Part shown: positions 29,429 to 55,480 of the stretch, piece after piece
How the letters are laid out: every line of letters begins with the position of its first letter
Numbering within the stretch: the stretch's first letter is position 1
Assembly (NCBI GenBank): GCA_964187785.1
Contig: OZ076409.1
Coordinates: 3,040,001-3,104,000, forward strand
Direction of reading: 5' to 3'
DNA: 64,000 nt
Source of the DNA: Amphiscolops sp. MND2022
Taxonomy: Eukaryota
The notes under the pieces: generated by a model
The model's input: only the letters and a program-made list of their open reading frames with translations
What the model was told of the DNA's origin: nothing
Database searches by the model: none
Made by a program: the position numbers and the translations under genes

Positions 29429-29540
29429 AATTCTATTAAATTCATCACAAATTAATCGTCGAATTTGATGACGATTTTGATCTGATCAGAAATTTCACTT
29501 GGATCCATCAGCGGGTTCAACGGTGCTTTTAACCAAAGTT

Positions 29541-30325
29541 CATCGCAATCCCATCCTTAAAGTTTGCGAGTGAACAAAACATGGGACTTTAAACTGACTT
29601 TCATCAGAAATCCATCAGCGGATTTTATGGGACTTATTCTAGTAAAACTCATCTTTAATTCATCGTGATAATTTCATTTAGTAATTCCTGAATGTGCTTC
29701 TCATTTCTAAAGAACAGTAGTCCATCCTTTATTCATCGCGTTCACTAGTACAGAAGAGAAATGAGAAAGTACATCCTTAATTCATCCTAAAAAGAGTGAA
29801 AGTGCTGGTTATCTGATTTGTTTAGTAAACCCATCCTCAATTCATCTTGATTTCGTTTGTGCTGAAAAGTAACCATTTTAGTGGGTGAGTTCATCCTAAA
29901 ATCATCGCTAAATCGAACTGCTTTAGTATTCGGTGTTTTAACCGGTGAGTTCATCCCAAACTCATCGTCAATTTGTATTGCTCTGGTATTTGCTGTTTTA
30001 AGTGACAAGTTCATCCTAAACCCATCGCCAAAAATCTCCTGTATTAGAATTAGCGTTTATCGACTGAATTCATCCCTAATTCATCGTCATTTGAATCTGT
30101 GCTGGAAATTGACAAATTGTACATGGAGTTCATCCTTTTGTCATCGTCAGTTTGAATTGTGTTGATTTCCGAGCGAGAAAGACTACCATTCATCGCATTT
30201 TCATCCAGAGCTAAACTATACTTGGAAATCAGCAAATATTCTTACAAGTTCATCGCATTTCCATCTTCAAGTTTTAAATCATTGATTTTGGTGCTAGAAT
30301 CAGCGGAAAACATCGTTTTCCCATC
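29541..30325 (-). promoter_or_regulatory. Phased array of 14 CATC-N7-CATC motifs, ~60-bp period, upstream of gag
   Basis: First CATC at 29541, 29602, 29650, 29723, 29772, 29832, 29892, 29952, 30012, 30071, 30131, 30191, 30251, 30311; spacers diverged; regulatory role inferred. Confidence 0.7.
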
Positions 30326-30984
30326 CCAAATTGTGCTTTACCTTAAATTTGCTTGAAATTAGTGCGTTATTGAATAATTTGTGTCCATTTTAGTTACTAT
30401 AGAAACCATGATGTTATGTGCAGGCAATTGCGACACTGTAAATTGATGACTAAACACCATTAACACATGTAGATGTACCATGGTGCGTGGCCACTTTGCG
30501 GCAGTTCACAACACCGGTCACGTGACTTACCATTTTAACACCAGCTGGTAACAGCCAATGAGAGAAGGTTGGTAAGAGATTTAGCGTCTTACCAACCGAA
30601 AAGACACGTGAACTGCTGTAATTTGTACCGCCAATAAATATTACTCAGCCCGAATTGCGACAAGCTACCGACCAGTTGGATATTTTAACACGCAAAAGTC
30701 AGAAAACACATCTCTATTTCATCTTCAGAAATTGAGAAATTTAAACTGAGTAATTTCTTGGTACAACTACGACTGCGATGAACATTGGATGAACTTCTTC
30801 TGAATAACTTGCTAGTTTTCTTTTCCTTATATAACTGCTTACTTATTTGTACGACTACTTTCTAAAACATCTCAGTTCAAATTAGTGAATTTTGGGATCG
30901 AACATTCAGTTAAATCAGCAAGATACATCGAAAACACTTCTCAGATAATTCAGTCTTCACTCATAATTCTTTTCTCTCGAATAC

Positions 30985-32490
30985 ATGAATCCGGACCACG
31001 GCACTGAACTTAGAAGCGGTAGAGTTATACATTCCTCGTCAGGAACATCTTCTCCAATAGATCCAGACATGGCTCAATCGTCCGCCAATGACTCTGACAA
31101 TAACGAACCTTCAGATATCTCGTCCCAATTGTCTGAAATAAAAGAGAACTATGAGAAGAAGATAAATGAGTTACAAAGCGAATTTAGTCAACTGAAGAAC
31201 TTATTGATGGCAGTTATTAGTAAAAATGATGAAAATAACTTACCTTCAACATCGCAAAGTTCTTCAAAGCCGACCCACAGGGTAGGGCTCGACATGGTGA
31301 CAGGAGTTACAGAAACCCGCTCCACCCGCCCGACATCCAGCTTCACAAACTTCAGGCGATACCAGGAAGACGACTCGGACGAAGAAGGTGAATCAACTCC
31401 TAGAAGCAATGAGGAACGACTACTCAATGCAATCGAGACGATCCCCCAACGAATCAAAAGCACCACCACCAACACGAAATTACTACAGACACACGTCCCA
31501 AATTTCAGAGGCCAAAAAGACAAATTCGTGGAATTCGAGCACCTTCTCCTCAACCACCTTAGCCCGCTCGCCAACAAAATCACCGAAGAGAACAAACTCC
31601 ACTTCTTTCAAAGCCTTTTGAGAGATGATGCAATAGAGTACTGGCAATCCATCCAGATAACGCCACTAACAACACTGAAAGATGTGCTCGACCTCTTCAG
31701 GAAAGAATTCGCGAAAGAGGACCTTAAAGAAGTAGCTCGCTACAAATGGGATCAAGCCCGTTACGATCCCACCACAGAAACATTCAGCGACTTCCTCAAA
31801 AACTTGAAAAAGACTGCGAAACAAGCATTTGGGGAAGAAGCGGATAAAATCATCAAAATGTTCTTGTTCGGTAAACTCCCAGTCGAAATACAACAAGAAC
31901 TTACGATGGCCAATAAGGAGGAGAGCTCACCAGAAGAAATCAAGACATACTTGATGAGAAAGTACCAGTACCAACAGTACGTTGCGCCACCTACGACAAT
32001 TCAACCATTTAACGCGGTCACCTCCTCGGTCCCAACGACCAACACAACGATTAAACCAGCAACAACGACGACAACACAACCGACAGAACGAAAACGATTT
32101 GAGGGACAATGCTTCTACTGCGGAAAGACAGGTCACCGCAAAACAGAATGCCGCGCCCGACAACGTGACGAAGCAAACGGCATTAAGAAAGAAGATGCAA
32201 TTCCGATGAAGAAAGCAACCGACACAGACAAACCGAAGTACAATCCCAAGCTGGTTTGCCAGATTTGTGGATACACCGGCCACTCTGCAAGAGACTGCAG
32301 GCGACGCATTCCCAAGGAAAGCAGCTCTGCATATGGAAAGATTCCGTACACAACAAATTCACAGGACGACAACAAGGCTAGACGACAAGATTTAAAACGA
32401 CAGCAAAAGCCGATGAATCCAATGCAAGCAATTACTGAGGACGACGAACAACTAAGCTACTCTGATGAAGACATTAACCAGGGTTTTTGA
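30985..32490 (+). CDS. gag: Gag of element B (501 aa), two CCHC knuckles
   Basis: CFYCGKTGHRKTEC and CQICGYTGHSARDC; capsid-like region; intact ORF. Confidence 0.93.
   Translation: MNPDHGTELRSGRVIHSSSGTSSPIDPDMAQSSANDSDNNEPSDISSQLSEIKENYEKKINELQSEFSQLKNLLMAVISKNDENNLPSTSQSSSKPTHRVGLDMVTGVTETRSTRPTSSFTNFRRYQEDDSDEEGESTPRSNEERLLNAIETIPQRIKSTTTNTKLLQTHVPNFRGQKDKFVEFEHLLLNHLSPLANKITEENKLHFFQSLLRDDAIEYWQSIQITPLTTLKDVLDLFRKEFAKEDLKEVARYKWDQARYDPTTETFSDFLKNLKKTAKQAFGEEADKIIKMFLFGKLPVEIQQELTMANKEESSPEEIKTYLMRKYQYQQYVAPPTTIQPFNAVTSSVPTTNTTIKPATTTTTQPTERKRFEGQCFYCGKTGHRKTECRARQRDEANGIKKEDAIPMKKATDTDKPKYNPKLVCQICGYTGHSARDCRRRIPKESSSAYGKIPYTTNSQDDNKARRQDLKRQQKPMNPMQAITEDDEQLSYSDEDINQGF
32481..32487 (+). 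other. -1 ribosomal frameshift heptamer G GGU UUU at gag-pol junction
   Basis: CAG GGT TTT TGA; the pol ORF is in the -1 frame and overlaps here. Confidence 0.75.
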
Positions 32491-35400
32491 TTCAGCCACG
32501 ATTTCCGCCCGCTAGAAATACAACGCGCGACAAACGACTTTCGACTCAACCGACTACACACAACCGTCCAATGAAGAAATGGCAGCCTTCACTGGACAAA
32601 CGACCAAAAGCTGACGACGTCTATCAGCGAAGACTTTCCAACGATGAAAAAGCGATGGGAATTGCACGTCAAGGCAACGGCAGCCGCTTTTCTCCACTCG
32701 CTGAAATCAACGATGAACAAACGATGAACTGGCAACAAAACACCATGAGGCAGGTGGAAGATGCCAAAGAGATGGAAACCAACCATCTTGACGACGACTC
32801 GACTTCACACTCAACAATCGACAAACGGCTTAGTATTAAAAAACATGCAAAACAGAGTAGTTTTAACGTTTCAAAAGCTAAAAAACATGCAACTAAAACA
32901 GAAATTCACGTTCTCAGTCCCACTTTACACTTAAACAAGAAAGATAAAATGCTTTACGTCCCTCTTCAGTTTGACAAATATGAAAACAGCGCACTTTTAG
33001 ATACAGGCGCAATTCAAAGTGCAATGTCTGAAGCAGAATTGCGAAAAATAACAACGGCTCATCCAGAAGCCATCCTTCAAGAACTCCCCCCTCCGAATTT
33101 CAAAATTCAAATAGCAAACGGGAACTTAGTCCCAGTACGTAAGCAAGTCTTACTTAGATTTTACGTTGCTGGAAAAGTCTTTGAAGAAACGTTCCTAATC
33201 CTTCCAACAATGGGCACAATTTTAATTGGAATGTCATTCTTTGAAAAGTACTCAGTCAATTTAGACATAAAAAACCACCTTGTCCACTTCCCTAATCACA
33301 TGATGTCCATGCAAGTTAGACAGCAAAAGAACAACAGATTCAAAACTGGTTTAATTGATTTGTGTTCCAGTACCAGAACAGTGATCCCTCCTCTCCATCA
33401 AGTGATGATACAGGTCCACAGTGACGCGGACATCTCACTTACAACTGGTACAGTTGAGGGCTCACCTGGATTCATGCGAAAGACGTGTTTGCTTGTTTCT
33501 CCAGCTTTGGTTGACCTAGATGAGGGCAAGACGACAATCCAGGTCACCAACCCGAACAACCACACGTTCACACTTGATGCCAACACCACTCTGGCACACT
33601 TTCGCATACCGACACCACATCAGGCGGCAAACATCACACCCATGCCAGTCGAACACTTGAACCTGATCACCAAGTACCCAGATGAGGCGGAAGCAGTGGT
33701 CAACCAACTGTTCGTGAACCCTGAAATGAAGTCAACTAAGTGGTACCCAACTCCCGAGACGTGCAGTGAGCCAGACAAACTCAACGCAATTGAGCGACGA
33801 ATCTATGATGAGATTCTGGCACTACGAGAGCTCGAGAAGCTTGACCCGTCCCAATCCGATGAACAACGGATGAACTTCCTGAAGAACTTCAACTGGGACG
33901 ACTCGCTTCTTACTCCGTCTCAACGGTTACAGGTAGAGGAGTTGCTGGTAAAGTACAACTCCATTTTTGCTAGACATCGTTTTGATATTGGCGTGAACAC
34001 TGATTTTAAAGTTAAGCTAACACCCCAACATGAAGAACCTGTTTATTCACAAAGTCTCCCTACTCCGACAAATTTGAAGGACGATTTGCTCGTGGAGTTA
34101 GCTTTAATGCAAGAGTACGGGATCATAACTACTTTGCCTCATAGCAAATACTGATCTCCGATATTTGCTCAACGTAAACCAAATGGTAAATTGAGGATTT
34201 TAGTTGACTTGAGAAGAATAAACCACTTGATCAAAAACGATTACGGTGAACACAACCATCCCGTAACAACAATTGCTGACGCTGCCCAACACATGGCCGG
34301 GAAAAAGTATTTCTGTAAACTTGATTGTTCCCAGGCCTACCATTGCATTCCAATGGCCGATGAGCAGTCTGTCCAACTGTTATCGTTTAATTTTGGTTCT
34401 AGAACTTTTGCCTTTTTACGTCTAGCCCAAGGTCTTAACCGTTCTTTGTCAGCATTCACAAGTGTAGTCCGTGAGTATTTGGACCCCTTGGTCAAAGCGG
34501 ACCGATGTGCTCAATATGTTGATGACTTCGGAATTGCAGCACACACCCCTGACGAACTGATTAATAACCTTGAACTTGTTTTTCAGCAGCTGAACAAAGC
34601 CGGTCTTAAACTTAGCATGAGTAAATGTGAATTTGGACAAAAACAAAGTGAGTACTTGGGAAAAACCATTTCTAGCACCGATATTGCTCCCATTGAGAAA
34701 CGAGTAACTGACTATCTGACCAAATTGAAACCCCCCAACTCAGTGAAAGCATTGCAACGTTATCTTGGTTTTGTAAACTTTTACAGGTCTTATATTCCCC
34801 GACTAGCTGATAAAACTTGTTGTTTACAGGAATTGATCAAGAAGGACGTCCCTTTCAAACTGAATCAACAACATAAAGATGCTATTTTTGAAATCAATGA
34901 AAGTTTGTTAAAAGCAACAAAAGTGTCTCTGAAATTGCCATTACCTGATAAACAATTGGTAATCATGTGTGACGCCAGCGAACACGCTGCCGGCTATGTT
35001 TTGTTAATTGAGGATTATGCTGACCCGTCAGTCAAACAAACATACGCCCCTGTTGCATTTGGCTCTAAGAAATTTCAGGGCGGCCAGATGTCTCTAACAA
35101 TGTATGCCAAAGAGTTTTTAGCTACGCACTTTGCCTTCGATGAATTTGGCCACATTCTGTGGGGTGCGAAAAAACCCATCATTGTTATGACTGACAATAA
35201 GGCCTTGACTAGATTTTTTCAGGCGAAGCATATCCCGCCTTCACTTTGGAATTTTTGCGATCAAACCCTTCAGTTCAATTTTTTATTAGCAAGGAGTTGA
35301 AAATCCCGCAGCGGACTACTTATCTCGGCTTGAGATTAGACCTGAAGACCGTGTACATTTAAAATTGACTGATACTATTCCAATTCACAGGATCGAGATC

Positions 35401-37572
35401 GACATCGCCTCCCGTACACCAAAACAGGAGGAAGACGAGCCTGATTACTTTCCCACGAGCGAACCACTCAGATGCAAACGCCAGAAGGATGTCAAAGAGA
35501 TGAAATTGGCAACTGGCACTCACGTGGCTCATGACGATGGGAAAGGGATGAAGTTCACCAACTGTGAGAGAACAGCGGCCTCAGATGACTTCGCGACTGA
35601 CAACCATCTGACGTACCGCCTCACAGACGTGGACGAGCCAATTCAACTCTCGCAATTCATCCGTAAAGTATCATTATCACACCCGGTAATGAGTCAGGTT
35701 AGCCCCGCTGAGGGGATCGATCTAATTCAGGTCCAGAAAAATAACTGGGTTATTCAAAAAATGATTAGATTTTTAGAAGGTACTGAAATTTTGCAACACC
35801 CAGTTAATATGCAAGATCAGTTTTTTCAAAAGTTGCACAAAAATCGAAAACGCCTACAAGTTGTAAACGGTGTCTTGTACAGACAGTTTTTTGATCACAC
35901 GGGACTGGAGTCTCACAAGCAGTTAGTTGTTCCTGAAGACTGTATTTTGAAAATAATTAGGACTCTACATAACAGCCCGGTACAAGGACACCCTGGTTTA
36001 AAGAAAATGTTCTACGAACTTCGTAAAAGATATTACTCTCCTAACTTAGCCTGTAAAGTTCAAAAAGTCCTTGACGGATGTGAAAACTGCATGAAATCTA
36101 AAAGTGTAAAAGAAACGCAACTACGTCCACCGTTACAAAAAATCTACGACCCGTGCGACGGACCAGAAGACCTGTTGGAAATAGACATCGTTGGTCCACT
36201 CCCGGCGTCGAACGGTTTTACACACATTCTGACGGCTGTTGACGTTTTTTCACGCTACCTGTTCGCCGTTCCGCTGAAGAGACCTGATACACATTCCGTA
36301 GTCAGAGGATTACTGTCGATCTTCACGAAACACGCGTATGTGCCCAAGCACATTCTGACGGACAAGGGCACGGCGTTCACGGCTGAACTTCTGTCTGAAA
36401 TCGCGAAAGCGGCTGATATTCACATCTCCCATGCCACGATAAAGCACGCACAGACAATAGGCATGGTGGAGAGAACGCACGCGAAACTGAAAAAGATCCT
36501 TAAAATTAGTGTAAACGCAGACCGACCACAATGGGACCGCTATGTCGACATAGCAATCATGGCCCATAACACAACGTATCATGATTCACTGAAATGTTCA
36601 CCAACTGAAATTTTCCACGGAAGAACACCATACAACCCACTAGATCTGCAATTCCGAAACGCAAACAAACCGGCTGAAACAAAGTGCAAGGACGTGAACG
36701 AAATTCTAGACAAAATGAACTTCATCTTCAGAGACAATCTAGATAACATCATTTCCGCCTATCATAAGTACAAAACGTACTATGATAGAAAAGCACGAGC
36801 ACAGCCACTGAAGGTGAATGAATTTGTGTTCCTACTAGATCCTAAGTACGACTCTCAGAGAAGCAAAGAAGAGTTTAAAACGTTCCATTTGAAAGGACCG
36901 TACAAGGTGATCAAAGTGCTATCCGATAGCAACTACATCATCCGCAAAGTAGGCACACACCAAACTCAGTGCGTACACAGAATGCGACTGAGGTTGTTCA
37001 AACCGGAATTTCCGATTGATGACATCAACGTGTCCAAACATCTCTACCCAGACACTGAAAGGGTTGAAGACACGGACATTTTCGACTCGAATATTCCGAC
37101 AACCGACGAAGTAGATCAGAATGAGAATGACAATCTAGATCAAAACTTAGTCGAAGAAGAGCCTTCAGAAGAAATAATTCCACAGGTACAAGAACGACAC
37201 AGTCCACAAGTAATTCCTCCAGAAATAACCACGAGAATAGATTATCAGCAAGTAGAAACTGACCACAACAACTTTAGACCACCTACAGTTAGATTTGGAA
37301 CGCAAGAGGAAATTATTCTACCGCCCCCCCGCGATGAAAGTAGGATAAGAGTACCTCTGAGAGACGAACAACACGAAAATCAGTCACAACAGACAAACAC
37401 GCAAAGTGAAGATGAGGAAAGGATGAGTTCTAGACCTTCTAGAAACAATCAAAGTAGGTACAGGTTACGCGAAAACCCTACACCGAAAAAATATCCTGAC
37501 TTCCTTATTCATGAGATTACATCAGCCAGAAACTCTCTGAGAAAGACCAACAAAGTAAACGTAACGAGTTAG
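32487..37572 (+). pseudogene. pol: Pol of element B (protease, RT, RNase H, integrase), disrupted
   Basis: LDTGA, YVDD, CDAS, HHCC/DDE integrase, GPY; in-frame TGA at 34152-34154 and a small deletion/frameshift near 35290. Confidence 0.93.
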
Positions 37573-37600
37573 CCAAGAAAAACAACATTTCAAAACACAC

Positions 37601-39447
37601 GATGTGTTAAAGATGAACAATTCACAAAAACGAGTCAATTACATGCAATTTCAATTTAAAATGAACATGAAGATGTAAAATGGATGAAAAGTTACTAAAA
37701 ATCACATGAAAAACGCATAAAAACAAAACACGATGTAAAACGGATGAAAAACGACCAAAAAACCAGAAAAAACAACACACAAAAATTTGAGATGAAAAAA
37801 GGATGAAATCACATGAAAATTTAGCTCAGACACACGAGAGATGAAAAAGTGATGAACTCAGTCAAAAATTCGACCAATCAACATGCAATATTTACTAGCG
37901 ATGCATTTGAGATGGAAAATACCATCAGAATGCGAACGCACTCACGTTCATGCTATCATAAGACTCTAGCTCGGCTAGAGGATGAAATAGCGATGAACTC
38001 GATCCAATTATTCATAAATTACATGAAATCAATTAACGAGATGAATTTGTGATGGACACTACCATCAAATCGTGACCGAATTTATCGTTAACCTGACACA
38101 ATACTCTAGCTTCGCTGGAGGATGTCAAAACGATGAATTTAGTCTAAATGGAAGTTCGAAAATATTAAATGACTTACCAAAAACTCCTTGCGGTGGGAAA
38201 CACCATCAACATAACATCACAATAAATCAGCTAACTCTCAAACAACATGTAACTCCACGAAACGATAAAAAACAACCGACTTTATTTCGAATCATGCAAA
38301 CAGAATTATGCGACACAAAAAAGAAATGATCAATACATGTAAAGTTCAAAGACCTGCCAAATCAATGACGTCACGAAAGAAATTGAAAATTCCAAACTAC
38401 ATGCAATACAAATGAGTAACACACGGAAATATACATGAACCGTTTAAAAACGAACAAGATAATATATGCAATTCACACCAAAGCCATCCAAACCTAGACG
38501 AATAAAAATGAAACAAACAATCGAAAATACATGAAGCCTAATAACTTACATGCAAAATATAAGAACTGACGAAACACCTACAAAACGAATAAAGGAGTGA
38601 GCACCCCCCAGCAAACATCAGTTCATAACAAGCAAAACACCCCTATCGAGAAGCCAAAAACATTCCTTCGTGCTGGCTGGCATTTCTCTGAAAAGAGTGC
38701 TGGTTAGTTGAGGCGGGGAGCTCACAACCATATTCGGATGAAGCTTGCTGCGTTGGTTATCCAGCGGCTAGTGGATTCTCAGTTAGTTTTGTAGGGGCTT
38801 TGAGACGACAAAGCCCTGTCCAAATTGACGAACAAAATCAAGAAATAACCAACATGCAAATAATGGGGTAACCCATTAAAAGATTACATTATGAAAATAC
38901 CACGAACACCAAAACGACATGTAAAATTAAAAAGAGAATGAAAATCATACTGAGACAGTATAAAATGAGTAAAACATGCACATACCATATGAAAAGTACA
39001 TTCCCGAAAACGTCAGAGTCACATAGCCACGAAAACGCACAAAATTACAAAATTGCAAAATTACGATGAAAAGAAGATGAACTATACCGCAAAACGAGCA
39101 AAAAACTTGCCAAGTCAAACTTGCGATGCAAAAACGATGAATTACACCAAAAAACTAGCAAAAATGCAAAAATTAAAAGGCAAGATGAAAAAACGATGAA
39201 CTATGTAGAAAAATCACATGTAACAAACATGCAATGAATCGCATATAACAAACGATGTAAAAAAGATGAGAAATCAGTTTTCGCAACGTCGCTCGGCCGA
39301 CCGAGGAAAACGTGATGAAAATGAGATGAGAAATCAAAAATGAAACGCTACCGAATCACCTACACTCCCACGAGATGTAATAACGATGATTACCGCAAAA
39401 AGACTAGCTGAGAATTGTGACAACGCAAAAACGATGTGAAAACGATG
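37601..39447 (+). promoter_or_regulatory. Two phased GATG-N7-GATG arrays (9 + 7 copies) between pol and the accessory gene
   Basis: 37601, 37672, 37732, 37791, 37840, 37900, 37981, 38040, 38121; 39065, 39125, 39184, 39254, 39314, 39374, 39433. Confidence 0.7.
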
Positions 39448-39754: not shown

Positions 39755-42700
39755 TTAATTGCCGATCTCCGGACTGGCAGCTCGTTCCCCACTAAGCGTG
39801 TATCCTAGCTTCGCATACAATTGGAGACGATAATCTTCTCCGGCCACAATTCCGATGTCGTCCCACAACATACCCTCGTCCAGCTCCGCCAAATTGACCA
39901 ATCGTCGATGTGACTCAGTCACTTCCTCTAACAAACGGCCGCTCACACTGTCATAACTTTGGATATGATTAGCAGACAAATAGGCCAAAATCACAGCACA
40001 AACACAACTCGCGACATCGCTACTTAACTGCCCAAATCCATCGCAGCAAAGACTGCTTCTGCTCTGAACTCCTCCATCTAGGCATAAAACACTGCGAAGC
40101 AGATTCTGAGCGCCACCACTAGAACAATGGCGAAGAAGATCGATGACAGAACAACCCTCTGTACGTCCTGCTAGTCCCGGGTCACGTCGGATATTGACAA
40201 GGAAATCCAGAAAGCCACGTTCCATCCGACCCTGCTCCGCACGGGTGATCCGACCCAGATCCACAAGCACATCAGTGAAAATCCTGATCTCGTCTAATAG
40301 GACGTCCTCTGCAACAAAACTCAGACAGGGCATACTGAAAACACTGCGCACAAACGACAGATCGTCTCGCACACCTGGCAGATTGATAACAGTCTTCACA
40401 ACGGTTAGAATGAAAACCGGAACAAGTGACAAATCCTCTTCATATAGAGCGGCATTCGAGCCTTGATCGTCCACACAACGAAATCCGTCCAGCAACACCT
40501 GATGTTTCACTTCTGAGATTTCATAGCTTTCCACATTCAGAAAGAGCCATCCACGAATGTCCAATTCCGATGGTAGCTTTTCTTCCTCTACTAGCATCAT
40601 CATCAGTGACTTCACAAAGGCAGCACTCTCAATTGCCCAGTAGCACGCGCGCAACGTCGAAGACCCAAAACTCTTCTCGTAGGAGCTGATCACTGAAAAA
40701 CACGAATCACAATTATCACAAGAAACAACCAGGTTTAACATTACACCCACAACCGTATAGCTTCCAACTCGATCTCAACAAAAAAACCAAAACCCCCCGT
40801 AACTTACAGAACTAAAGTATTACTAACAAGCACAGTACACAAGACCAAGAACACGGAGTCTAATCGGAATGCCGACCTCAGCACGTAGTGTCAAGTCTAA
40901 GGCATCCAAAGGCCCTTCACCACTAGCGAAGCGTAGCAAGCATAAGATGTCAGACCAGTTCGTCCGTAACTCCTCGCACACATCGGCCAGGGTCCAAATG
41001 TACACCTCGCCGGTAACAATCGCCTAAAATGTAAATAATACCATCCCAATCAATTCGATAAAATCAAACAATTACATCACGCCTACACACCTGCACAACA
41101 CTAAAATTATTACATCAACCAATTCTCTAATATACTACGTACTTGCAGAAGTTGAGGGCATCCTAGCAACAGAGGATCTTTCACGTATCCTTTGAGACGT
41201 TTCTGTAAATGGTTCAGTACCACGTGAATGTCTGTACCCCCCAGCACTGATCCGGCCACATCCACAATTGCCCGACTGACATCTGACAGACCCAGAGACT
41301 TCACGTCCAATGATCCGACTCCTGTGCTGCTTCGAAAGAGCCCACCCAGCTGCGGCAACTCATCGCAACACAGTCCAAGTGGGACTGGCTCACCGAGCAT
41401 ACAGCACCACATGTTCACTAGCCATGTGATTACCCTGCTTTCCCAGTCTCGAGCCACACTGAAGCTATACACACAGTAGTGCTTGACCCCGTCTAACACA
41501 CACACTGTAACAGTCCCTGTCACGCGCCCTCCCACAACTGACAAATGGAAGCTACTGTAAGTGCTATCGGTCCAGACAGTGATCAGTCGCCGCATCACGT
41601 ACGGCCACAGCCCTAATACGATCACGCTCTAAAACAAAAACGCTGTGAATAAAACATAAAAATAGCATCCACCCTACCCCCCACCCACTACTAAAACTAG
41701 AAGAACACATAATGGCCAAAAGTATGACTAAAAAACATACGAGTAGACGCTTACCATGACATCGTTCAATCCGCATTGCGCCCCAAACAAAACCGCATGT
41801 TGGGGATCGGAAGCCACCAACACTTCCCACAGGTTCGTGACACTGGCAAACTGACAATCACGATATAGGGCGTCCACAACAAAGCAAATAAACAGACGAA
41901 CAGTTCGCTCTGGCCAGTCTTCCCCTTCCTCTTCGTCGCCCCACACAGGTCGTCCAGCACCCTCCAACTCGAAAACTTCCACCACATTAAGTGATGGACA
42001 GGTCTCTATGAAAGGCACGGACACCCCCTCCAGGTTCACACGGCATTCTGCACTTTCGTCACTTGTCATGAGAGTTCCATCACGTCGCCGCAACGGTAGC
42101 CCTCGGTGCAGCCGTACCACACAATCCAGCCGATGATGGCCTAGGCCTCGGCAGTGCTCCATAAAGGTGGTAATCCCTCGGCTGCCCACCTTAACATCTC
42201 TCTTGCACATTAGACATCGCACATACGACATGCGCGACTCGTGATTGCGTGAATATCCTAGCGCCAGCCCGCAGTATGGATGATCAAACCATCCAGACTT
42301 GATCACTTTCTTTCCTGATAATCACAACCACACAATATAGCAAAAGTAATACCATTACAAACCATCATAGACAACGACTAAAATCATCTGTTACACATCA
42401 GAAAAATCGAAAAATGCAAAAGTCACAAGTAAAAACCAAAAAAGTTCACCCGGAGTGATGAAAACATGATGTAAAATAATATTTTCATTGGAAATATAAG
42501 CGAAAAACGAAGAAAAAACGAAAAGATGAAAAAGAGATGTGTTTGCACACCACCAGAATGAAAAATGGAAACTTTAAAGAATGAAAAACTCGAACGATGG
42601 AAAAGAGATGAATAGAACGACTTTAAACCAAAATTGAGATATTTTAGAGCGAAAACAACTTAACGATGAAAACGAGATGTAAACTGAAAAGAAAACACTG

Positions 42701-44422
42701 AAAAATAGCGAAAACCGAAACGAGGAATTTTAAAGATGTAAAAGAGATGGAAAGTTCTAAAAAAGGACCAGAGAGCGAAAAGACTATTGTTCAAAACTTT
42801 TGACGATGAGAAAGTGATGGAAAATGGAAAACTGCAGAAAACCATATAGTCAAAACAGAAAAACAATGGAAAATGGATAGAAAAGAAGAAAAACGTGAAA
42901 AATGCTAGTGAAAGTAAAAACGAAGAAGGAAATGAATGAAAATCTACTGATCAGATACTTCACCGGTTTAAAGCTGTTTAGTTAACCTGGCAGACGAGAT
43001 GCAATGGGCTCGTCATCGGAGTCCAACAGGCTGGGTCCCATTGGAGACGTCTCGATGTCAGCAGTAGCCACATTGGACGCAACACTCCCTGGAGCAGACA
43101 CGCCAGACGGAGGACTACGAAATGAGAAATCGTCAGGGATTTCCAGTAGGGTCTCGGTGGTGCCAGCTGAGGGAACTTCGGACGGGGCAACGTCAACGTC
43201 AACTGCCCCAGGAACATCAGCAATCGGTGGAGGAGGAGAAGACGGTGGAGTAATCGCTGGAGGATCATAGCAGGTAGCAGCAACTCCAGTTTCAGTGACA
43301 GCTTGGACAGTTTGATCTGCAACGCCCACACAGGCATTGATGGCCATGTCTCTACAATCGACAACAGCATTTACAGCAGCGTCGAGAGTAATACGAGCAG
43401 GAGGAGGACTAGCAACGGTGAAAGATCGCCTCAACACTGGCGACAGTACAGACACTGGCGCCTGCCTGACAGGAGAACTCACTCCAGTTAGCGACAGTTC
43501 ATTGAGGAACGAGGAGAGGTTGAGTTGAGGAGGCCCTCCTTGTGTGCTGACGTCAACGCTGCCATCACCGAAGTCACTGGTCCCGATCCCGATAGAATAG
43601 GTGATGGGACGCGGTCTCGGGGCATGGATAGGCGTTGGACCTGAAAGAAGGAAACAGAAATCAGACGACGACGAATGAAGAAGAAAGTGCGCGTACGCCG
43701 CGCGAAGAAAGAAGACAGGAGAAGAATTCATCTCAAATCCATCCTCAAAATGGAATTCGCAACGAATCAGCCATGAAAACTGTGGATATTCATGATACAT
43801 CCTAAATTCATCCTAAAAATGATTTTTATGAGGTAACCGACCGCGAAGGGCACTACATGCAGATGAGATGTTTACATCGGAATTACATCGGAGTGTCCGG
43901 ACGATGCCTTAGTACAGGAGGAAAGTAAAATGGAGTCAACTCACTAAATTGCTGGATGCTATCTCGTAGCATGTCCCGCATGTGGCGATCATACCACCCG
44001 AAGGTGATGCTACCGAGGGAGGCATACCAGGGATAGTGATCTAAACAGTAACGGAAAGAGTCAGCGTCTGAATGGATCGGGGATGAGAAAAGAAGAGATT
44101 GTAGACTGAGATGATGATCTGAAAGGAAAGAACTTACACTGCGGAAGATACGGGACGTTAGGGGCCTGTTCAATTTGCTGCTCAGGTTGATACTGAGGTG
44201 CGGGAGATGCTGCATGGATTGGAGCCTCTTGAGGCGGAACTGTCTGCAATGTAGTCAGCTCGGAAATGATGCCGACAGAGTGAACGGAGTCCGCTAAAAC
44301 CAAGACACGCCTTCAGTTCCTAATTATTCCCTAACCCGTTTATGAAGAAGAGAAAAAATAGTGCACTTACTTTCTGTGGCCTCGGTCTCCGGTAACGAAT
44401 AGACGGAGTGGATATCCGACAT
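39755..44422 (-). CDS. Antisense 7-exon accessory gene of element B, predicted 1013 aa (S/T/P-rich N-terminus, CxxC..H..H Zn finger, hAT-like helical body)
   Basis: Exons 44422-44371, 44293-44138, 43640-42987, 42314-41755, 41628-41143, 41023-40828, 40692-39755; all GT-AG with compatible phases, 3042 nt with no internal stop; the exon-3 donor (CAG/GTTAAC) is weak. Confidence 0.78.
42457..42819 (+). promoter_or_regulatory. Six GATG-N7-GATG motifs, ~70-bp period, in intron 3 of the accessory gene
   Basis: 42457, 42525, 42596, 42665, 42735, 42805. Confidence 0.7.
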
Positions 44423-45190
44423 CGTGAAGAATTGCAAAACAATCTGAAAAGGAACGGAAGAGAGTGAAGAAAGGAACGAAATCGAAGAATCTGAGGACAA
44501 GAATTTGATCAGTAATTAAATGGCCTGATCAACCATGATTGCGAGATTACAAATTCACGAAAAACTTTAAAGAGCGCGAATGCTGCTTGAGCGACAGGAC
44601 AAACCAAATACTTGAAATTCAGAAGATGAAAAATCGATGAAAACTCTCCGATTTCAATGACTCTCTACACTTTTCTTCCCAGTTTCAACCAACTTAGCAA
44701 TTTTCTCTGAAAATGAATCGCCCCCCAGAATTTGACTACAAAAGCTTCAAGTATTTGATTTTGATGACAGTTGCCAGTCTCAGATCAATGCCGACGAAGT
44801 TGAGCGGAAACGCGCAAAGGAAATCGTGGCGATTTTCAAAACCGACTTGACGGAAGATGATTCACGGATGAGAATGTTTGTTAACAACCGGTTGAGTTTC
44901 CTCCAGTTCTGAAAATTCAGTTTTCCGCCAATCAGAATTTAGCAGCAGTTGCTATGGCGACGATTTCATCTCTTTCTCATCGCTGAGAAAATCAGACAGC
45001 GGAAGCGACAGTGACGGTTGCTATGACAACAAAATCATCTCTTTCCTATCGCGGAGATTGACAGAGCGGCGGCGCCAGCCGTCTGTTATGTCAACATCGA
45101 TGTCTCGCTGAGTAAACAATTCATCGTTCATTCATCCCGGGAAACTTCGGCAGACAAGAAATGGCGCCGATTTACTGCCAAATTGTCAAC

Positions 45191-45390
45191 NNNNNNNNNN
45201 NNNNNNNNNNNNNNNNNNNNNNNNNNNNNNNNNNNNNNNNNNNNNNNNNNNNNNNNNNNNNNNNNNNNNNNNNNNNNNNNNNNNNNNNNNNNNNNNNNNN
45301 NNNNNNNNNNNNNNNNNNNNNNNNNNNNNNNNNNNNNNNNNNNNNNNNNNNNNNNNNNNNNNNNNNNNNNNNNNNNNNNNNNNNNNNNNN
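45191..45390. other. Assembly gap (200 N)
   Basis: N run. Confidence 1.
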
Positions 45391-48400: not shown

Positions 48401-51400
48401 GATTGTCTTGAAGATGGTCCCGCTGTTCTTGGTTTTGTGGAGATGGGAGACGAAAAATTTTTTCCTCCTACAGTTCCTCCAAATCAGGTATTGAAACTCC
48501 TAGTTGCGTCGCTACTCCGTATTATTTGTTGAAATCGTTTTTGTTCAGGCAATTCCATTTCCTAATTGAGTCTCAAAATTCCTGTAAAATAAAATTCTAG
48601 CTGAAGTTTTCATCGACGAAAGCACGCCGGCGTGATCAATTAGTCACTTCCCAAGTTAGGAAATTAATGTTCGAAGTAAAAGTATGACACTCAAAAATAT
48701 CGACGGAAATGAAGCAGAGTAAAGGAATTCGGAAAATGGGAAATACCTAAATACTGGAAAGGAACAAACGATGCTGAAACGAGAATATCGAAATTATCAA
48801 TGCAAACAAATATTCATCATACTTTTAACAATAGTATGGGTTAAACACAAACATTAACAATTACAACGAGGACAACCCGTTGTATAAAACATAATCACCG
48901 TCAAAATTAGAAAATAGTGTAAAACTCCCAGTTATCAAAATAAGCAACAAACTAGCATCGAATTAGTAGCATCTCATGATTGCAGTAGTGACACAAACTC
49001 AGAAAATGGCAAGAGGACATTTGGAAAATGAATTGATCTTACGTTGCATCTTCGGTCTTATTGTCAAAAATAAATCTTGCATAAGATGGAATTATTCAAT
49101 TGGAACTCTTCTGCCAATGAATTAGTTGCAACGTAAGTCAAACGTGACTTTTGTCATCAGTGAAATGTGCACTTTGCCTTATTACAATCATTGTATTCAG
49201 TGAGGAATGGGCAGAACTAAGTATATTGAGAGTAGCATCATGAGGCTGCTTTGATATCATTGGGGAAATTGACACCATTATGGGGTTTTCAATTACAAAA
49301 TAGAATTGCATGTAACGTAAAACAAACGTAAAATTAAAATCACGTTATGTTTGTTTCATCACTAACTGATTACCAAGTTACCTTTTTAATCTTCCTTACA
49401 GTACAGCTTTTCTTATATGAAATCCTGTTCCAAAAATCTTTTAAATGCGTCGGTTCAAAAAGGAACTGCGTCAGAATCTCGTTTGTACGAATACTTCATA
49501 TCTGCAGTTGTACAATGTGCTCCGTAAATGCTCCGTACGTATTAGGATTAGTTATAGCTGAGCGGCGGTGGCTGGCGGAGCGGAAGCGGAGGGCGTAGGT
49601 GAATTCTTTCTTTTTCTCTCAGCTAATTGGCGTTGCTAGGGGTAACCAAGCGTGATTTCTATTAGCTCTAGCTCAAATAGATCATTTAGGGAACAGCGCT
49701 ATTGGTCCGCAAAAATAGAAACACCCATTACTAGCTTAGTTGAGTGACGCTGTCATAACGTTGTAAACATTGGTTTAAAACCACTTGACTGAGGTTTTAA
49801 GCGGATATTTGACAACTACGTTAACACTGGAAAAACAACTCCTCTATATTTTGTATGTTTTCCATTTTAGATCGTATGAAGTCCGTTGGGATCTCGGAGT
49901 TAAACCTTGTTGCTAATGTTTTCATTTCAGTGTGGAAAAGAAGAGAAAAACGATCCCATTTTAGAAAATGTCTCTCTGTTATTATTTAGATTTGTATGGA
50001 AAAATCAGAATATGAAACCGAAAAAAGGAAATAGCGTTGCGCGTGAGAATATTTGACCGGAAGTTTTAGTTAGTCCAAAATCAATTCTAAAAAGATTCCG
50101 TGACGCTTACGGCGTGTTTTGTAACTGAAAATTACCTACAAATAGTTTAGCTGAACTGTAAGTAAAATTAGGTTCTCTTACTCATTATTGTTAGTTCTGT
50201 AGTTTGATAGTTCGGTTCTAATGGTACTTGCAGTACCCTCGGCCGCGTCCTCTTCCTATCGCGTAGCACCAGTCGCAACCACAACCGGGAGCGGGCTAGA
50301 AACGCGGGCAGTCCGTGGCAATGGGGGTTTTTTTTGATCTGCACTCGGGGGCGGCTGGTGTACTTTCTAATTTGATGGGGGCCACGACCACGGCCGACGG
50401 ACAAGTAGACGTCTTTTTTTCTTCTCTCTCGAGCTCTAGCGTCAACTTTGCGGAATACTCTTTGGCTTCAGGGGTGCACCAAGCATTCTTATAATCTTCG
50501 GCAATTTCCAATCTCGTGCGGAGCTCGTTTAGGTCATTTAGGCTGTTTGTCACTGGGGCGTCTGAATCACGGGAAGGCCACACAGGGGATGGTCTTAGAG
50601 GAGAGTCAGGTTCTTCATAGTAGTCCATCTCTGAGTCTGATCCCTTTGTTGTTGGCAAGTTTGGCAAATTAAATTTCACCTTTTTTTTTCTTTTTTATCT
50701 TCTAGATAGGGCTGATTTTCAATTTCTTCGGCGAACAGCCGAAATCAAAAGTCGTCTCGTACTCAGGATCGCTCCCGCGGAAGACTTCCGTAGATGAGTC
50801 GCTTGGGTTAGCTTTCTCCACCATATTTACTAGAGAGTTTTTATTGGTGTACTTCTCCTTACATTCTCTTCATCCGAGGAGATGTCGATAACAAGCGAAT
50901 ATCCGTTCATTGTTTTTTGATTATTTTTCAGGAATTTCTTGTTTGAGAGGGTGAATGATTTCGAAAAAAATGAGACAAATATTGCAAGCTCGTCAGGCAG
51001 GAAATTGGACGACAAATGACCGTTTTAATTTCCTTTCAGTCGTAGCTTTCTTCGAGTTTTGTTGGTCCGTTTTTCCGCTTTCGTGTCGGTCCGTCCTGAC
51101 CTTTTAGGGCGACGAACTTCTATCCTCGTTGTGATTGGTCAATAAGATGGATTAAAATAGGAAATTTTCATCTTAATTCCGTTTTCCTTCATCAGCGTCG
51201 TTATGACGTCATCAATTTTCTCGAGAAGGTTACTTTCACGGAACGTAATTTCTAAAATGGTTTTTAAGAAGGCTTTCTTCAGAGCTTCTTGATGAACTTT
51301 CATTCACCAGTAGGATTTTTTGGAAACGTTTTGTTCCCAACAATGCCGTAATAGGCTTTTCAGTGAAGTTGAAGAAGATGTATCTTTCCTGAATACGTAG

Positions 51401-51553
51401 GGATGACGTTGCTAATTTCTTTTGGATGGTTACGTTCACACAACGCGATTTTCTTTCCTTGATTTTCCTTTTCTTTTTAGATTGTCTTGAAGATTGTCCC
51501 GCTATTCTTGGTTTTGTGGAGATGGGAGACGAAAAATTGTTTCCCCCTACAGT
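45404..51553. repeat. ~3.07-kb tandem duplication, units 45404-48474 and 48481-51553
   Basis: Colinear near-identical copies with scattered SNPs; 6-nt filler tcctcc at the junction. Confidence 0.93.
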
Positions 51554-54500
51554 CGCTGCCACTGGATTTGTCAGTGGGAATGAGACCATTTTTGGGTACA
51601 GTGACGACGATGTGATTCCGTCTGGTTCTGATATTGGACACTGTCCCATGTTTGCAAAATCTTTCTGACTTCCAAGGGTGTTTAGACTTTGTTTTTGGTG
51701 ATCAGCCTTTGTAGTCTTACCCGAAATCCTGACGCGTCTGACCAGATCTTGATTTTCAGTAACTCAACCTGTCGCTTGTTCAACTAACCTCGAAGTCAAT
51801 GCGGGGGAGTCCCAGACGGCCACTGTGGAATTGTTTAAATCTTCCACTACTGCCTTGCCTTCTATCTCTGAAATTTTGCCAGCAGTCCGGTCTACTTCCG
51901 TTAATGAGGCATTAATCTCCACTTTGGTTGTTCCTGAGCTTGAAACTTCGTATCTTGTTATACCTAGCAGTTCTGCCGTATTTCCTTCGTCGGCTTCTGT
52001 GATATCTGGATCTCGGGCTCTTACGAGGGGTGTTGATGTCAGCCCTGATCTGTCTACCGATAGTGAGTCTCAAGGAGGTGAGACTGATCCCCCCGCCGAG
52101 AAAAAAATCAGGCTAGTTGCTGAAAGCGTTGTTGTCAAATATCGCTTGAGGGCGAGGTGTAGCTGATAAAATTTGTCTTGAACTTGCTTTATTAGGGTTG
52201 AAAGGGTATTCCGATGCGATGCCGTCTGTGAATTTTGCTACGTCCCCCATGCGCGCTAAGAAAACTGTTCCTCCTCCTCCGAGCCCTCCACCTTTGACGC
52301 GAGCACCTGGTGGTTGGAATAGTCAAAATGAGGACCAGACTGCTTCCGTTGGTGATATGCTGGTCACTTCTGGTGACCTGATGCGATTGAGTCAGCCTTA
52401 TTGGATGAGGTGAGGAATCGGACTTCACAGACTATCCGCACTGGTATGTTGCCATTTTATTGCTTATTGATGGGCCTCTGGCTTGTGCTTGTTGTTTGTT
52501 TGTTGAGTTGGTCCCTATTGGTTTGTGTTCGGTTGCGAGTTCCCCTTTCTCTCTCTCTCTCTTTTGTTTTTTTTGTTAATGGCATATCTGTATGTTGCAG
52601 GATTCCGTGAACTCAATGAAAAGGTTGGGAGCCAGAAATTGCCCAAGACATACAGCAGTCGCAAGTTGTTGCATCGTCGCATATTGGACCTCCATCCTGC
52701 CTACAAGAGTTTCGTGAGTGGTGCAAAGAACGGACAGGCGACGTACTTCCATTGCCGAGTGTGTCGTCGTGATGTGGCCATGAAAACACAAGGCTCTGGC
52801 GAGTTTAGGCGCCATTTTGAATGCGACAAACATTGGATCAAGGACGTAATTTATATGGTGCATATGGGCTTGTCAGTCCTTAATCGTTTGATGGAGCCTA
52901 TGGATTTGACAATGATCCAGATGGCTCAATATCGAGCTAAACCTTTCGAAAACCTTGGTGAAGAGGACCCTTTCCCTGATGACTTTGTGCCAAAACATTC
53001 CCGAGTGGATTTTAAAGTTCCGTTCATGACGTTCGTGGGCTATCTGGGAGAACTTCTTCGCAATGGTGGAGACTTTACTTTCTTGCGACGGCTTTGGGGG
53101 CATTTTCGGTCATCTCTGGGCGATTGGAAGCCTGAATTTGCTTTGAATTGGAGCCGTTCGGAAACCGTGGTAAGATATTTCCCTTCTGTTTCCGCCTGTC
53201 TTGCGTTGTAATTTTGTTTTCCTTGGTTAATCTACTGATAATACGTGTGCTGTATATCGTGGTGGCAATGGCGTCTATGTTTTTAGTCAATTCTGTGCCA
53301 AGCTCTGGCCCCTCGTGTGTTGTGGTTGATGGTCAAGCATATTACATTCTTCAGAGGGTACAGTTTGCAGTTCGAGAAGTCATCGTTTAAGGAGTAATGC
53401 TATGTGCTTTGTTGGGAGGAGAACCATCTAAAAAAGGTGTGTATTGGAAAAGACTCTTCGGAATAGCCCGTGCCCAATGCGGAATTGATGCATTTATCGC
53501 GCGTTGCATATAGCCTTTCCACCAAACAGCTGCCAGTTTCTATTTCTGGTGCGATTCCGTCTTTGGTTCGTGTTTTGGGAAATGTTCGTGAAGAAGGTCG
53601 CCGTTTCGCTGTGTATCAAGCCTTCAGCGAAGAAGTTTTCATACAATGCTTCCGATAGGCTCTACCAGGATGTCTTTGGTTTGGTGAAAGCGGTGACGAT
53701 TGTCGACTATGTTGTGCAGCGTCTAAAGAGTGCCTTGTACGAGGAGTGGACGGAAGATGAACCAGTGTTGCGTAAGTGTGTTCGGCAAGGTTTCGTCAAT
53801 TTTGGTGATTATCGAGCTCTGTTGACTGATTTGATCGATCTGTGGCCATCGATTCGACCTTACATCCGTTGCACTGGAAATCCCGAATCAAAAGAGAAAG
53901 CCGATAGTGTTAGTATGGTGTGCTTGATTGTTGTAAGTTGGGGTTGACTTAGGTTGTAAGTAGGTTTGGTTTGTTTCTAGATGCGAGGTCCAGACTGGCG
54001 ATTAGATTAATTGCCGACGATATTATTACATATCAAATCGAGTTGTTGCGTTTTGTGCTCGATACCTGTAAGTATGGTGTTACGACTGATTGATTGTGTT
54101 ATGAATCTTTGATTGTGTCTGCGATTCTATCCGTTGTTCCGACTGTTGTTCGTTATCTGGATTTCGGTTTTGTGTTCTGATGGTGGATTTGTAATTTCTC
54201 TGTTTTAGTCTTTATCAACTTCGAGAAGCTACAACAGTGTCGGGCGGATTACGGATTTCACGGGTACGGTGAGCTATGTCACTTCAACTACTGTCTGTTG
54301 ATGAAGACTCGGGACATTTCTAGTTTGCCTTCTATTCATAAATGGGAGGAGTATATGGATCCCGAAAAACTTGTCGAATTCCCTATTGCTCCGATTGAGT
54401 CGTTTCTTGAGAATTGTGCTTTTGGACGGTCACTGTCTGCTGGTAAGACGACTGGGGTCTTGGAATTTCGTGGGCGCTGCAGAGAGTTCCTTGATTGTTT

Positions 54501-55480
54501 GGTGTTCGTCATCTTGAGTATTTCTGCAGTTTCATCGAGAGTGACACGGAGCCTTAGCTGTGTTGGTCCCGAGATTTTGCTCGAAGGCGATGATCATGTA
54601 GTGTTTCGTCTTTTTGCCGATTTGACTGATGTGCTGGGGGCATGTGGGCTATTGGTTGCTGATGAGGCAAAAGCAGCAGTTGAGCAGTTTAACAGCTACA
54701 TCGTTGTTAAACGGAGACAGCACGATCGCTCCAAAACCACTGCTAGCGACATTCCTAATGTGGTGCACTATTTGCTACGTGATTTTAGTTTCCAGGCCTG
54801 TCATCATGTTTGCCGTGTATTGAAGCTATGCTGTTTGATTATGGGGAGTCCTTGCGGGGTTCATCCGCAAGTGCTCTTTGATTTGGGATGTGGTAAAATC
54901 AGCAAAGACGTGTTTCAAGACTGTCTCCGACTCGTCCAAAGTTATGTGTTGAATCCTGGGTATTGTCCTCAGTTCTTTTTTACAGAGTCAACAGGGTGCA
55001 GTTCGTGATGCTATTGCCAGTGCTGGTATATTTTTCGTTACTCCAGGTTATGATGTTTGGAAAGATGTTTGTGATCCCGGAGTGGCTTCGTTTGTCTCGC
55101 CGAGTAAGAAGGCTTATGATGCATATTTGTTGGAGCGCCGGAAATCTTATGAGCATCATTATGTGGATTGCAATAAAGCAAACCGTCTTTCTCGCGTTAA
55201 TGCCGTAGTTCCTGCTGTCGATACGGATAGTACAAGCACCTTATGTTCAAAGAGTTCCAGGTGCGATGCCCAATGGTCGGATTCTGGGAAAAAGACTGCG
55301 TCGTCTTCCAACAAGTCAGCCAGGGCTGGTACTGGTAATCAAAAGGGGAAGGAGAAGAAGCCTCCAAAAATTGTTGATCCGGACGTCTTCCATCGGATAA
55401 AGTTAAGGTTTGCACTTTTAAATAACTCCATTCGATGTTTTGAGTGGTGCTTATGTGTTCGTATCTTTGTTGAATTTTGA
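51480..55480 (+). pseudogene. Antisense spliced accessory gene of element C, homolog of the B gene, degenerate
   Basis: Exons 52601-53169, 53287-~53908, 53981-54067, 54209-~55480; CRVCRRDV...H.....H finger; stop at 53395 and frameshifts; 5' exons uncertain. Confidence 0.72.

Follow-up and report, generated by a model that had tools for sequence, protein, structure and literature searches.

For their transcription, retrotransposons with long terminal repeats (LTRs) are usually thought to depend on host factors; regulators encoded by the elements themselves are known from complex retroviruses and from the VANC system. We describe here a Ty3/Gypsy retrotransposon of the animal Amphiscolops sp. 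MND2022, termed element B, one copy of which lies in a 64,000-nucleotide stretch of DNA (contig OZ076409.1, positions 3,040,001 to 3,104,000 of the forward strand), called the window throughout. Element B carries, antisense to pol, an accessory gene predicted to be spliced and to encode a protein with a BED-like zinc finger, and its DNA contains several arrays of a single bipartite motif; a second, related element, C, is found in the same window. An earlier note on this locus had proposed that protein and motif form a self-targeting system similar to the VANDAL/VANC one of Arabidopsis.

The foamy virus Tas protein has sites in the LTR and at an internal promoter, HTLV-1 Tax acts on 21-bp repeats, and HBZ is the product of an antisense spliced gene. 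BED fingers are the DNA-binding modules of hAT transposases, which recognise many short subterminal repeats, and of the DREF/BEAF/ZBED proteins. The 5' untranslated region of Drosophila gypsy holds about a dozen spaced Su(Hw) sites, bound by a host protein with multiple fingers.

Among plant retrotransposons, Retand, Grande and RIRE2 contain an antisense accessory open reading frame (ORF) and arrays of family-specific tandem repeats in a long region between pol and the 3' LTR (PMC11963269, PMC7264820). In the passages of these reports consulted here, the Retand ORF is described as conserved across its lineage and presumed to bind DNA, and, in view of the accessory genes of retroviruses, its role is suggested to be regulatory (PMC11963269, PMC7264820); an antisense promoter of HTLV is also mentioned (PMC7264820). 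For the Arabidopsis VANDAL/VANC system, the consulted parts of the literature report that binding and loss of methylation have been demonstrated, and document a family-specific divergence of the motif (PMC5735166, PMC10398659).

Element B and its antisense gene

The LTR retrotransposon of which element B is a copy is of the Ty3/Gypsy type and measures 18.8 kb, the full length in its family being 18.4-18.8 kb. No LTR pair is visible within the window alone; the pair and the limits of homology were established by comparing the window with three full copies from the same genome. In full copies the LTRs are pairs of 2,244 bp, beginning with TG and ending with CA, with the terminus ...CGACA, and 5-bp target duplications, TTCCT and TATAT, surround the two copies whose flanks were examined. 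The main features of the window copy are the following.

29051..31294, plus strand: 5' LTR, 2,244 bp, TG...CA; the only LTR of the window copy
31295..31306, plus strand: putative primer-binding site TGGTGACAGGAG, directly 3' of the LTR; no tRNA was matched to this word
30985..32490, plus strand: gag, with two CCHC zinc knuckles (Pfam zf-CCHC, E 1.8e-07)
32478..37572, plus strand: pol, coding for protease, reverse transcriptase (RT), RNase H and integrase (Pfam); contains nine motif sites
39755..44422, minus strand: accessory gene, eight-exon model with the ATG at 44422, 1,065 codons plus stop, seven GT-AG introns, frame open throughout
44422-44371, 44293-44138, 44118-43945 and 43640-42987, minus strand: accessory exons 1-4
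42314-41755, 41628-41143, 41023-40846 and 40692-39755, minus strand: accessory exons 5-8
42136..42216, minus strand: zinc finger, C-x2-C-x16-H-x5-H, BED-like C2H2, matching the BED ligand pattern
45191..45390, no strand: run of N (assembly gap), which removes the final ~400 bp of the internal region together with the 3' LTR

Along 30967-37572 of the plus strand, Pfam recognises a CCHC gag followed by protease, RT, RNase H and integrase, which is the Ty3/Gypsy order (RVT_1, E 2.5e-23; RT_RNaseH, 1.3e-16; rve, 7.4e-14; Integrase_H2C2, 1.9e-13). In the window copy an in-frame TGA (34152-34154) and a change of frame near 35290-35300 break pol up into three ORFs. A homologue search with the RT segment returned 662 ENA proteins. 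GGGGAG, a candidate polypurine tract, stands just before the 3' LTR in one B copy, and the word TGGTGACAGGAG also adjoins the LTR remnant of element C near 61700; Rfam and tRNA scans of the window gave no match. The two LTRs of one full copy are 99.4% identical, which indicates that the family has been recently active: element B belongs to a young and abundant Ty3/Gypsy family. The animal nature of the host is apparent from its genome, in which 75 of 147 scored candidates match rhodopsin-type GPCRs above the Pfam cut-off.

Two peculiarities of the LTR may be recorded here. The gag frame opens about 310 bp inside the 5' LTR (30985-31294) and reads through the boundary between LTR and primer-binding site. 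In one further copy, c1 (L044+L031+L045), the gag-side LTR measures 1,835 bp instead of 2,244, about 410 bp being deleted internally; the same copy has AT, not GT, as the first donor of the accessory gene model.

The earlier note had described a zinc-finger protein antisense to pol, and this is borne out: the finger ORF, 42321-41728 on the minus strand, is one exon of a larger gene, predicted to be spliced and convergent with gag-pol. The exon structure is a model, for which the strand was read and the junctions were tested by script. Its second intron, of 19 nt, is implausibly short, and the first three exons are tentative. The last four exons can instead be regarded as secure by comparison of genomic copies, being kept in 13 out of 13 loci of seven subfamilies, where the positions and GT/AG boundaries of the last three introns are the same and a single stop is found in 5 of the 52 exon instances. 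These loci were picked by hand across the identity tiers, with one or two taken at each level from among the 150 best genomic matches, and are not a random sample. The upstream exons are also conserved, at 48-68% amino acid (aa) identity, and the serine/proline-rich exon is in frame, its alternative frame not being conserved.

Substitution patterns indicate that the accessory gene is under strong purifying selection. In the finger exon the proportion of non-synonymous differences (pN) is 0.07-0.25, against 0.56-0.81 for synonymous ones (pS), and the ratio of the corresponding rates (dN/dS) is 0.05-0.07 where dS could be computed; in the last exon dN/dS is 0.12-0.19. By manual tally, 133 of the finger exon's 150 listed genomic matches are free of stops, these 150 being the ones scored among 3,143 first-look candidates. 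The introns are antisense to the genomic RNA and should therefore survive retrotransposition, as would follow from the mechanism of replication.

The predicted product, of about 1,065 aa, has an N-terminus rich in serine and proline, followed by a single C2H2 finger of BED-like type; its C-terminal region is large and helical.

Arrays of a bipartite motif

The window contains 57 exact matches to GATG-N7-GATG, where shuffled sequences give an expectation of 1.99 (standard deviation 1.53, maximum 6; none of 100 shuffles reaches 57), and all but one of them (56 out of 57) fall within element B, between 29541 and 45136. Sixteen lie in the 5' LTR, 17 in the spacer between pol and the accessory gene, 10 in the accessory introns and 4 upstream of the accessory ATG; another 9 are in gag-pol coding sequence, and none is found in the accessory exons. 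The earlier note had counted about 40 copies, confined to non-coding segments. The nine sites within the gag-pol ORFs correct the latter statement, and the former is an undercount, as 47 of the 56 sites lie outside gag-pol in the window copy, cut by the gap, while a full-length copy holds 72, with 17 in each LTR. The sites are grouped as listed below.

29541..30325, minus strand: U3 array, 14 sites spaced by ~60 bp, reading TTCATC-N5-TTCATC on the gag-pol sense strand
37601..38218, plus strand: pol-proximal spacer array, 10 sites
39065..39447, plus strand: distal spacer array, 7 sites, immediately downstream of the accessory stop codon
42385..42819, plus strand: intron array, 7 sites in the 672-nt intron before the finger exon
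43729..43889, minus strand: second intron group, 3 sites in the 304-nt intron upstream of the serine/proline-rich exon
44625..45136, both strands: upstream group, 4 sites, two per strand, 5' of the accessory ATG

The extended core, about 17 bp in total, consists of GATGAA, an A/T-rich 5-bp spacer and a second GATGAA. Its half-sites form direct repeats with an offset of 11 bp, close to one turn of the helix. The distance from site to site is mostly 59-60 bp (49+11), with variants of 49, 70 and 81, and the U3 array has a self-identity of 0.42 at lag 60, against a mean of 0.27. Within one element, array units carry near-zero information outside the core: the 8 core bases are all fixed across dozens of units, while the spacers have decayed to near background, and three arrays with unrelated spacers have one core in common. 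Because the units are near random outside these ~17 bp, Tandem Repeats Finder reports just one array, a fragment of 2.5 copies at 29884-30032 with 76% matches. Read on the sense strand of gag-pol, TTCATC is the form present in the U3 array and GATGAA that of the internal arrays.

Searched genome-wide, GATGAANNNNNGATGAA gives 12,647 matches, compared to 317 for a reversed control, a 40-fold enrichment; when the first 100 places of the list were tallied by hand, 86 belonged to groups of at least 2 within 20 kb and 14 were single. The motif clusters in, and is largely restricted to, elements of the B family. One cluster, G000:C1:7627713-7640189, contains motif sites of the LTR and gag-pol types, but none of those of the accessory region or the spacer; it spans ~12.5 kb, compared to 18 kb, and is possibly a copy from which an internal deletion has removed the accessory gene.

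The arrays are maintained across the family. In all of 14 B-type stretches, the window copy and the 13 loci, with finger-exon identity down to 62%, CATC/GATG at offset 11 is the top bipartite word, and site counts and spacing series are similar; the series 81-59-81-60 of the pol-proximal array is kept in 6 of 6 aligned subfamily loci. When seven other loci are compared with the window copy, the cores of the intron array are 0.958 identical (322/336) and the non-core positions 0.803 (2,220/2,765); in the distal spacer array the corresponding values are 0.883 (346/392) and 0.673 (1,918/2,849). The pol-proximal array, conserved throughout (0.995 vs 0.875), is little informative alone. Further conserved blocks outside the cores are present in the array alignments. 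One of the features seen in the distal spacer array is an CACGTTTTCCTCGGTCGGCCGAGCGACGTCGCGAAAA-like block in the region 39600-39460, with an internal palindrome, conserved in 8 out of 8 sequences and exceeding its surroundings.

Divergence along the element is mosaic. Sliding nucleotide identity of seven other subfamily loci to the window copy (loci L031-L043, window positions 36321-45189) is 49-70% in the body of the accessory gene, within which the intron array reaches 71-88%; it is mostly 74-92% in the upstream non-coding DNA and mostly 90-100% in the 3' end of pol and the adjoining array. Similarly, pS is 0.02-0.21 in the integrase C-terminus and 0.56-0.83 in the accessory exons, one locus combining 0.021 in pol with 0.81 in the finger exon: the accessory genes of the B subfamilies are saturated at synonymous sites. 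The simplest reading of such diverged genes on little-differing backbones would be recombination between co-existing lineages. An old accessory gene on a young backbone bears on the way recombination shapes families of retroelements.

The finger protein as candidate binder

The cores are probably binding sites for a sequence-specific protein recognising duplex DNA. This is likely because fixed cores are accompanied by decayed spacers, the spacing is conserved, the arrays have opposite polarities and the two half-sites lie on one face of the helix. The occurrence of both orientations, in the LTR and internally, fits recognition of duplex DNA better than that of one RNA. The best candidate binder would be the element's own BED-like protein, since its finger is the least variable part among subfamilies that share the motif and since the sites lie in U3 and around its own gene.

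The four finger ligands, C36, C39, H56 and H62, are invariant in 10 out of 10 aligned sequences, element C included, and across the B subfamilies with the common motif the finger segment (residues 11-85) varies less than any other part of the protein. Pfam zf-BED (PF02892) matches 6 of 10 members at relaxed E only, the best value of 0.0017 being below the gathering score, and the Pfam scan of the window protein gave no zf-BED match. A family profile searched against PDB sequences found ZBED2 as the sole match (E 1.4). Among 30 ESM Atlas matches of the finger, 22 are zf-BED clusters at 0.93 and 6 are clusters of Spin-doc/GT2D2 fingers; the nearest cluster is mostly molluscan. Three weak lines, all under threshold (Pfam, PDB profile and ESM Atlas), agree in suggesting a finger of the BED type.

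The finger is the sole feature of the protein that can be recognised. Apart from the sub-threshold finger matches, no Pfam family was found in it. The AlphaFold models are of middling to low confidence: the finger exon has a pLDDT of 68.2, and the last exon, all helical, one of 58.5. In Foldseek searches the top row, not significant, is the Hermes transposase (E 0.71), and the highest Z of a wide VIA-align search, 5.3 on a helical hairpin, is in the range of chance. The whole protein might have originated from a hAT transposase, but no hAT dimerisation or catalytic domain was found in any of 9 last exons even at E <= 10. The best ESM Atlas match of the last exon, bacterial DUF6179 with a score of 0.81, was judged not credible.

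At E <= 0.001, a profile search of 1.84 billion representatives detected 206 relatives; 150 of them were listed, and the majority of these are of exon size. Ten representatives were looked up: the sole name was 'hypothetical protein', for one of them, and they come from ENA assemblies, one cluster having a JGI member. Pfam found sub-threshold finger matches only on 10 longer representatives. A search with the finger ORF for longer homologous proteins found none, and searching metagenome contigs with the finger-exon alignment gave 179 pattern matches, none of them confirmed.

On this basis a mechanism may be proposed, by analogy with foamy virus Tas, the HTLV regulators and VANC. The sites recur about every 60 bp: they occupy U3 in each LTR, the stretch separating the two genes, and the accessory gene's introns and upstream DNA. 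These ~70 bipartite sites would probably be bound as duplex DNA, with the element's own finger protein as the leading candidate. On U3 the protein might raise or protect gag-pol transcription, and on the sites in and around its own gene it might exert feedback on itself, the resulting loop being either similar to that of a retroviral transactivator or of the anti-silencing kind represented by VANC. That the finger protein of the element binds the arrays in a self-activating or anti-silencing loop is a possibility that we put forward tentatively. Of the VANC-like interpretation given in the earlier note, what stands is a conserved gene, predicted to be spliced, a BED-like finger and arrays whose cores are more conserved than their spacers; what does not fit is that the element is an LTR retrotransposon, that there is no homology to VANC and that the motif is the same in the seven B subfamilies.

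A broader proposal would regard the spliced antisense BED-finger gene and its ~70 cognate sites at both promoters as a self-contained module, by which an abundant superfamily of animal Gypsy elements (B-type and C-type, with thousands of candidate copies) controls its own transcription or escapes silencing, and which is swapped by recombination. Taken as a whole, this proposal is doubtful. The swapping of the module may be likened to that of the immunity regions of lambdoid phages.

Several points weigh against the self-regulatory loop. The anatomy of the element and the conservation of both gene and sites are observed, while the binding of DNA by the finger, the binding of this particular motif and the direction of the effect are what we infer from them. 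The BED assignment is below the Pfam threshold; Foldseek on the PDB, with models of the finger exon and of the last exon, found nothing at E <= 0.001; and with VIA-align the finger region scores best against RNA-binding fingers, those of TUT1 and TUT4 (Z 4.8 and 4.6). The splicing of the antisense gene is a model from sequence, including one intron of 19 nt, and the 13 comparison loci are a non-random sample, hand-picked from 150 best matches. Nine sites are in gag-pol coding sequence, where GATGAA also encodes Asp-Glu. The window copy of element C, the sole deep relative available for comparison, holds no array of any bipartite word. Finally, no co-variation of motif and protein was seen: a check of the motif by subfamily, as proposed by the earlier note, found a single motif in all 14 B-type stretches, whose fingers are also near identical.

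One motif in seven B subfamilies is equally what a host factor would give, and a first alternative, somewhat unlikely in our judgement but accounting for the data about as well, is that the arrays are clusters of the enhancer or insulator type for a host transcription factor, the accessory protein being unrelated to them. In its favour, the motif has remained unchanged while the accessory genes of the same seven subfamilies became saturated at synonymous sites, the arrays lie upstream of the presumed LTR promoter, and finger and motif are linked by inference only. However, the finger is near invariant in these subfamilies, so that the missing co-variation is uninformative, and the motif is rare outside the B family (12,647 matches against a control-level background of 317). 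We know of no well-known factor for direct repeats of GATGAA at 11 bp. If a host factor does bind, the arrays would still illustrate with unusual clarity how selection acts on cis-elements inside a transposon.

The accessory protein might also bind the arrays for a job other than transcription, such as tethering or partitioning of DNA, targeting of integration or marking of copies. hAT transposases use BED domains on subterminal repeats and episomal viruses use families of repeats, which offers analogies for such roles. The finger is of the transposase type, 6 of 30 ESM Atlas matches are Spin-doc/GT2D2 and Hermes is the top Foldseek row, non-significant at E 0.71; moreover, the many sites extend over the whole element, coding sequence included. 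This explanation appears nonetheless improbable, as no catalytic or hAT dimerisation domain was found and nothing singles out a specific alternative function.

Binding of RNA would recall Rev/RRE and, from the consulted part of its description, the CERV protein of Cer1 (PMC10309623): the motif would act in the genomic RNA, as a set of sites for export or packaging by the accessory protein. The spacer arrays are indeed in the 3' part of the genomic RNA, and the TUT1/TUT4 fingers are RNA-binding. Yet their Z values, 4.8 and 4.6, are below 5, the chance range according to the tool, no Rfam match was found, and the opposite polarity of U3 and internal arrays means that each transcript holds both GAUGAA and UUCAUC, all of which makes a role in RNA very improbable.

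That the arrays are ordinary tandem repeats with no sequence-specific function, the core being inherited from a founder unit, is hardly credible and already disfavoured by the alignments: such repeats are common in Gypsy LTRs and between pol and the 3' LTR, as stated in the part of PMC11963269 consulted, and the period is regular, but the spacers are near background where 8 core bases are fixed in dozens of units, the cores surpass their flanks in conservation between subfamilies, three arrays with unrelated spacers have the same core, and mini-arrays occur even in coding sequence.

Were the broader proposal of a self-contained module true, animals would have their first case of a sequence-specific auto-regulator that is encoded by a retrotransposon and has mapped cis-sites. 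If the pairing of finger and motif is real, it would follow that retrotransposons are able to evolve trans-acting control or counter-silencing of their own, there would be a handle on how giant Gypsy families attain high copy number, and a natural orthogonal DNA-binding module would be available. For testing, the locus offers a clean animal pairing of a single finger with a single bipartite site of 17 bp, present in hundreds of young copies.

Element C, other features of the window and known systems

The second element of the window, C, is represented by two features.

52507..55480, plus strand: degenerate accessory homologue, with the finger exon at 52507-53211 and further ORFs to 55480
55869..61736, minus strand: gag-pol remnants, 23-48% aa identity to B (tblastn), with many frame breaks

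The pol segments of C are 45-48% identical to those of B in RT and integrase and 38% in the protease, and its accessory gene is convergent with pol, as in B. That C encodes a diverged homologue of the finger protein, as claimed in the earlier note, is confirmed both by the finger region (BLASTP E 5e-06, 21/80 identities) and by the B-type last-exon profile, which matches the C ORF 54181-55005 with E 8.1e-06 in a search restricted to the ORFs of 51501-55900. The copy is truncated on both sides, its 5' LTR being reduced to ~250 bp, and its best other genomic match is 76% identical; by these signs the window copy of C is old and broken.

The same note had assigned to C a half-site of its own with 11-bp spacing, which could not be retained: in this truncated copy, devoid of arrays, the best candidate, AACGT-N6-AACGT, occurs just twice per unit of a 3,077-bp repeat which is dissimilar to the 5' end of C. 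On the whole, the main points of the earlier observation stand, while the purely non-coding placement of the motif, the count of about 40 and the half-site of C do not. C-type genes are very numerous in the genome (6,506 first-look candidates), and the 12,647 strict motif matches are approximately what several hundred B-type elements would yield, which suggests that most C-type elements may be without the GATGAA motif.

The 3,077-bp unit is present in tandem at 45404-48480 and 48481-51553, right after the assembly gap and upstream of the C accessory gene, with 97.8% identity between its two copies. On the minus strand of each unit lies an ORF of 132-144 aa, for which Pfam gave no match. The unit was considered as the LTR of C, and rejected for its dissimilarity to the 5' end of that element; it is dissimilar to the LTR of B as well.

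Other repeats are scattered in the first part of the window. A 16-nt repeat forms two arrays, of 7 copies at 22064-22173 and of 5 at 24699-24782, which are the reverse complement of each other and are separated by ~2.5 kb with two minus-strand ORFs, of 260 and 250 aa, without Pfam match; the region 22064-24782 could be a DNA transposon with subterminal repeat arrays. A retroelement-like unit occupies 643-5814 on the minus strand, in a stretch of low GC content (0.32-0.33) and strong GC skew (0.23-0.49), and has three ORFs, measuring 232, 431 and 893 aa; a Pfam match exists for the longest alone (Retrotrans_gag, E 5.4e-07). Direct repeats at 13738-14403 and 15519-16159 are 98-99% identical and ~1.76-1.78 kb apart, with 12-nt tandem repeats near each.

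Among the listings and abstracts of the open-access literature searched, no animal Gypsy element with an antisense spliced zinc-finger gene and site arrays was found. The proteins nearest to that of B are those with BED fingers (hAT transposases, DREF, BEAF-32, ZBED), which it resembles in the finger spacing C-x2-C-x16-H-x5-H and in the similarities below threshold mentioned above; it differs from them in having no transposase catalytic or hAT dimerisation domain and in being encoded within a retrotransposon. Drosophila gypsy similarly has an array of one short site inside a Gypsy element. Its sites, however, form a single cluster and are bound by a host protein, while B has arrays in five places and a candidate binder of its own.

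Complex retroviruses offer a regulator with repeated response elements, both in U3 and near its own promoter, and an antisense spliced gene in the 3' part. They are vertebrate viruses with env and no sequence relation to B, which features a BED-like finger and ~70 sites. VANDAL/VANC, in the parts of its description consulted, shares with B an element-encoded accessory protein and short motifs repeated in the element's non-coding DNA. VANDAL is nevertheless a Mutator-like DNA transposon with a protein of an unrelated family, whereas B is an LTR retrotransposon with one motif in seven subfamilies.

The closest described architecture is that of Retand, as far as the consulted passages describe it, where an antisense ORF and repeats occupy the region from pol to the 3' LTR, both of which are also found in B. 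The Retand ORF, from a plant host, contains Transposase_28 (PF04195), a domain not found in the accessory protein of B, from an animal host; B differs in having a gene predicted to consist of several exons (seven modelled introns), with a BED-like finger in place of the TRP28 domain, and repeats reduced to one bipartite core, present also in U3 and in the gene's own introns. No link between motif and protein is claimed for Retand in the text consulted (PMC11963269, PMC7264820).

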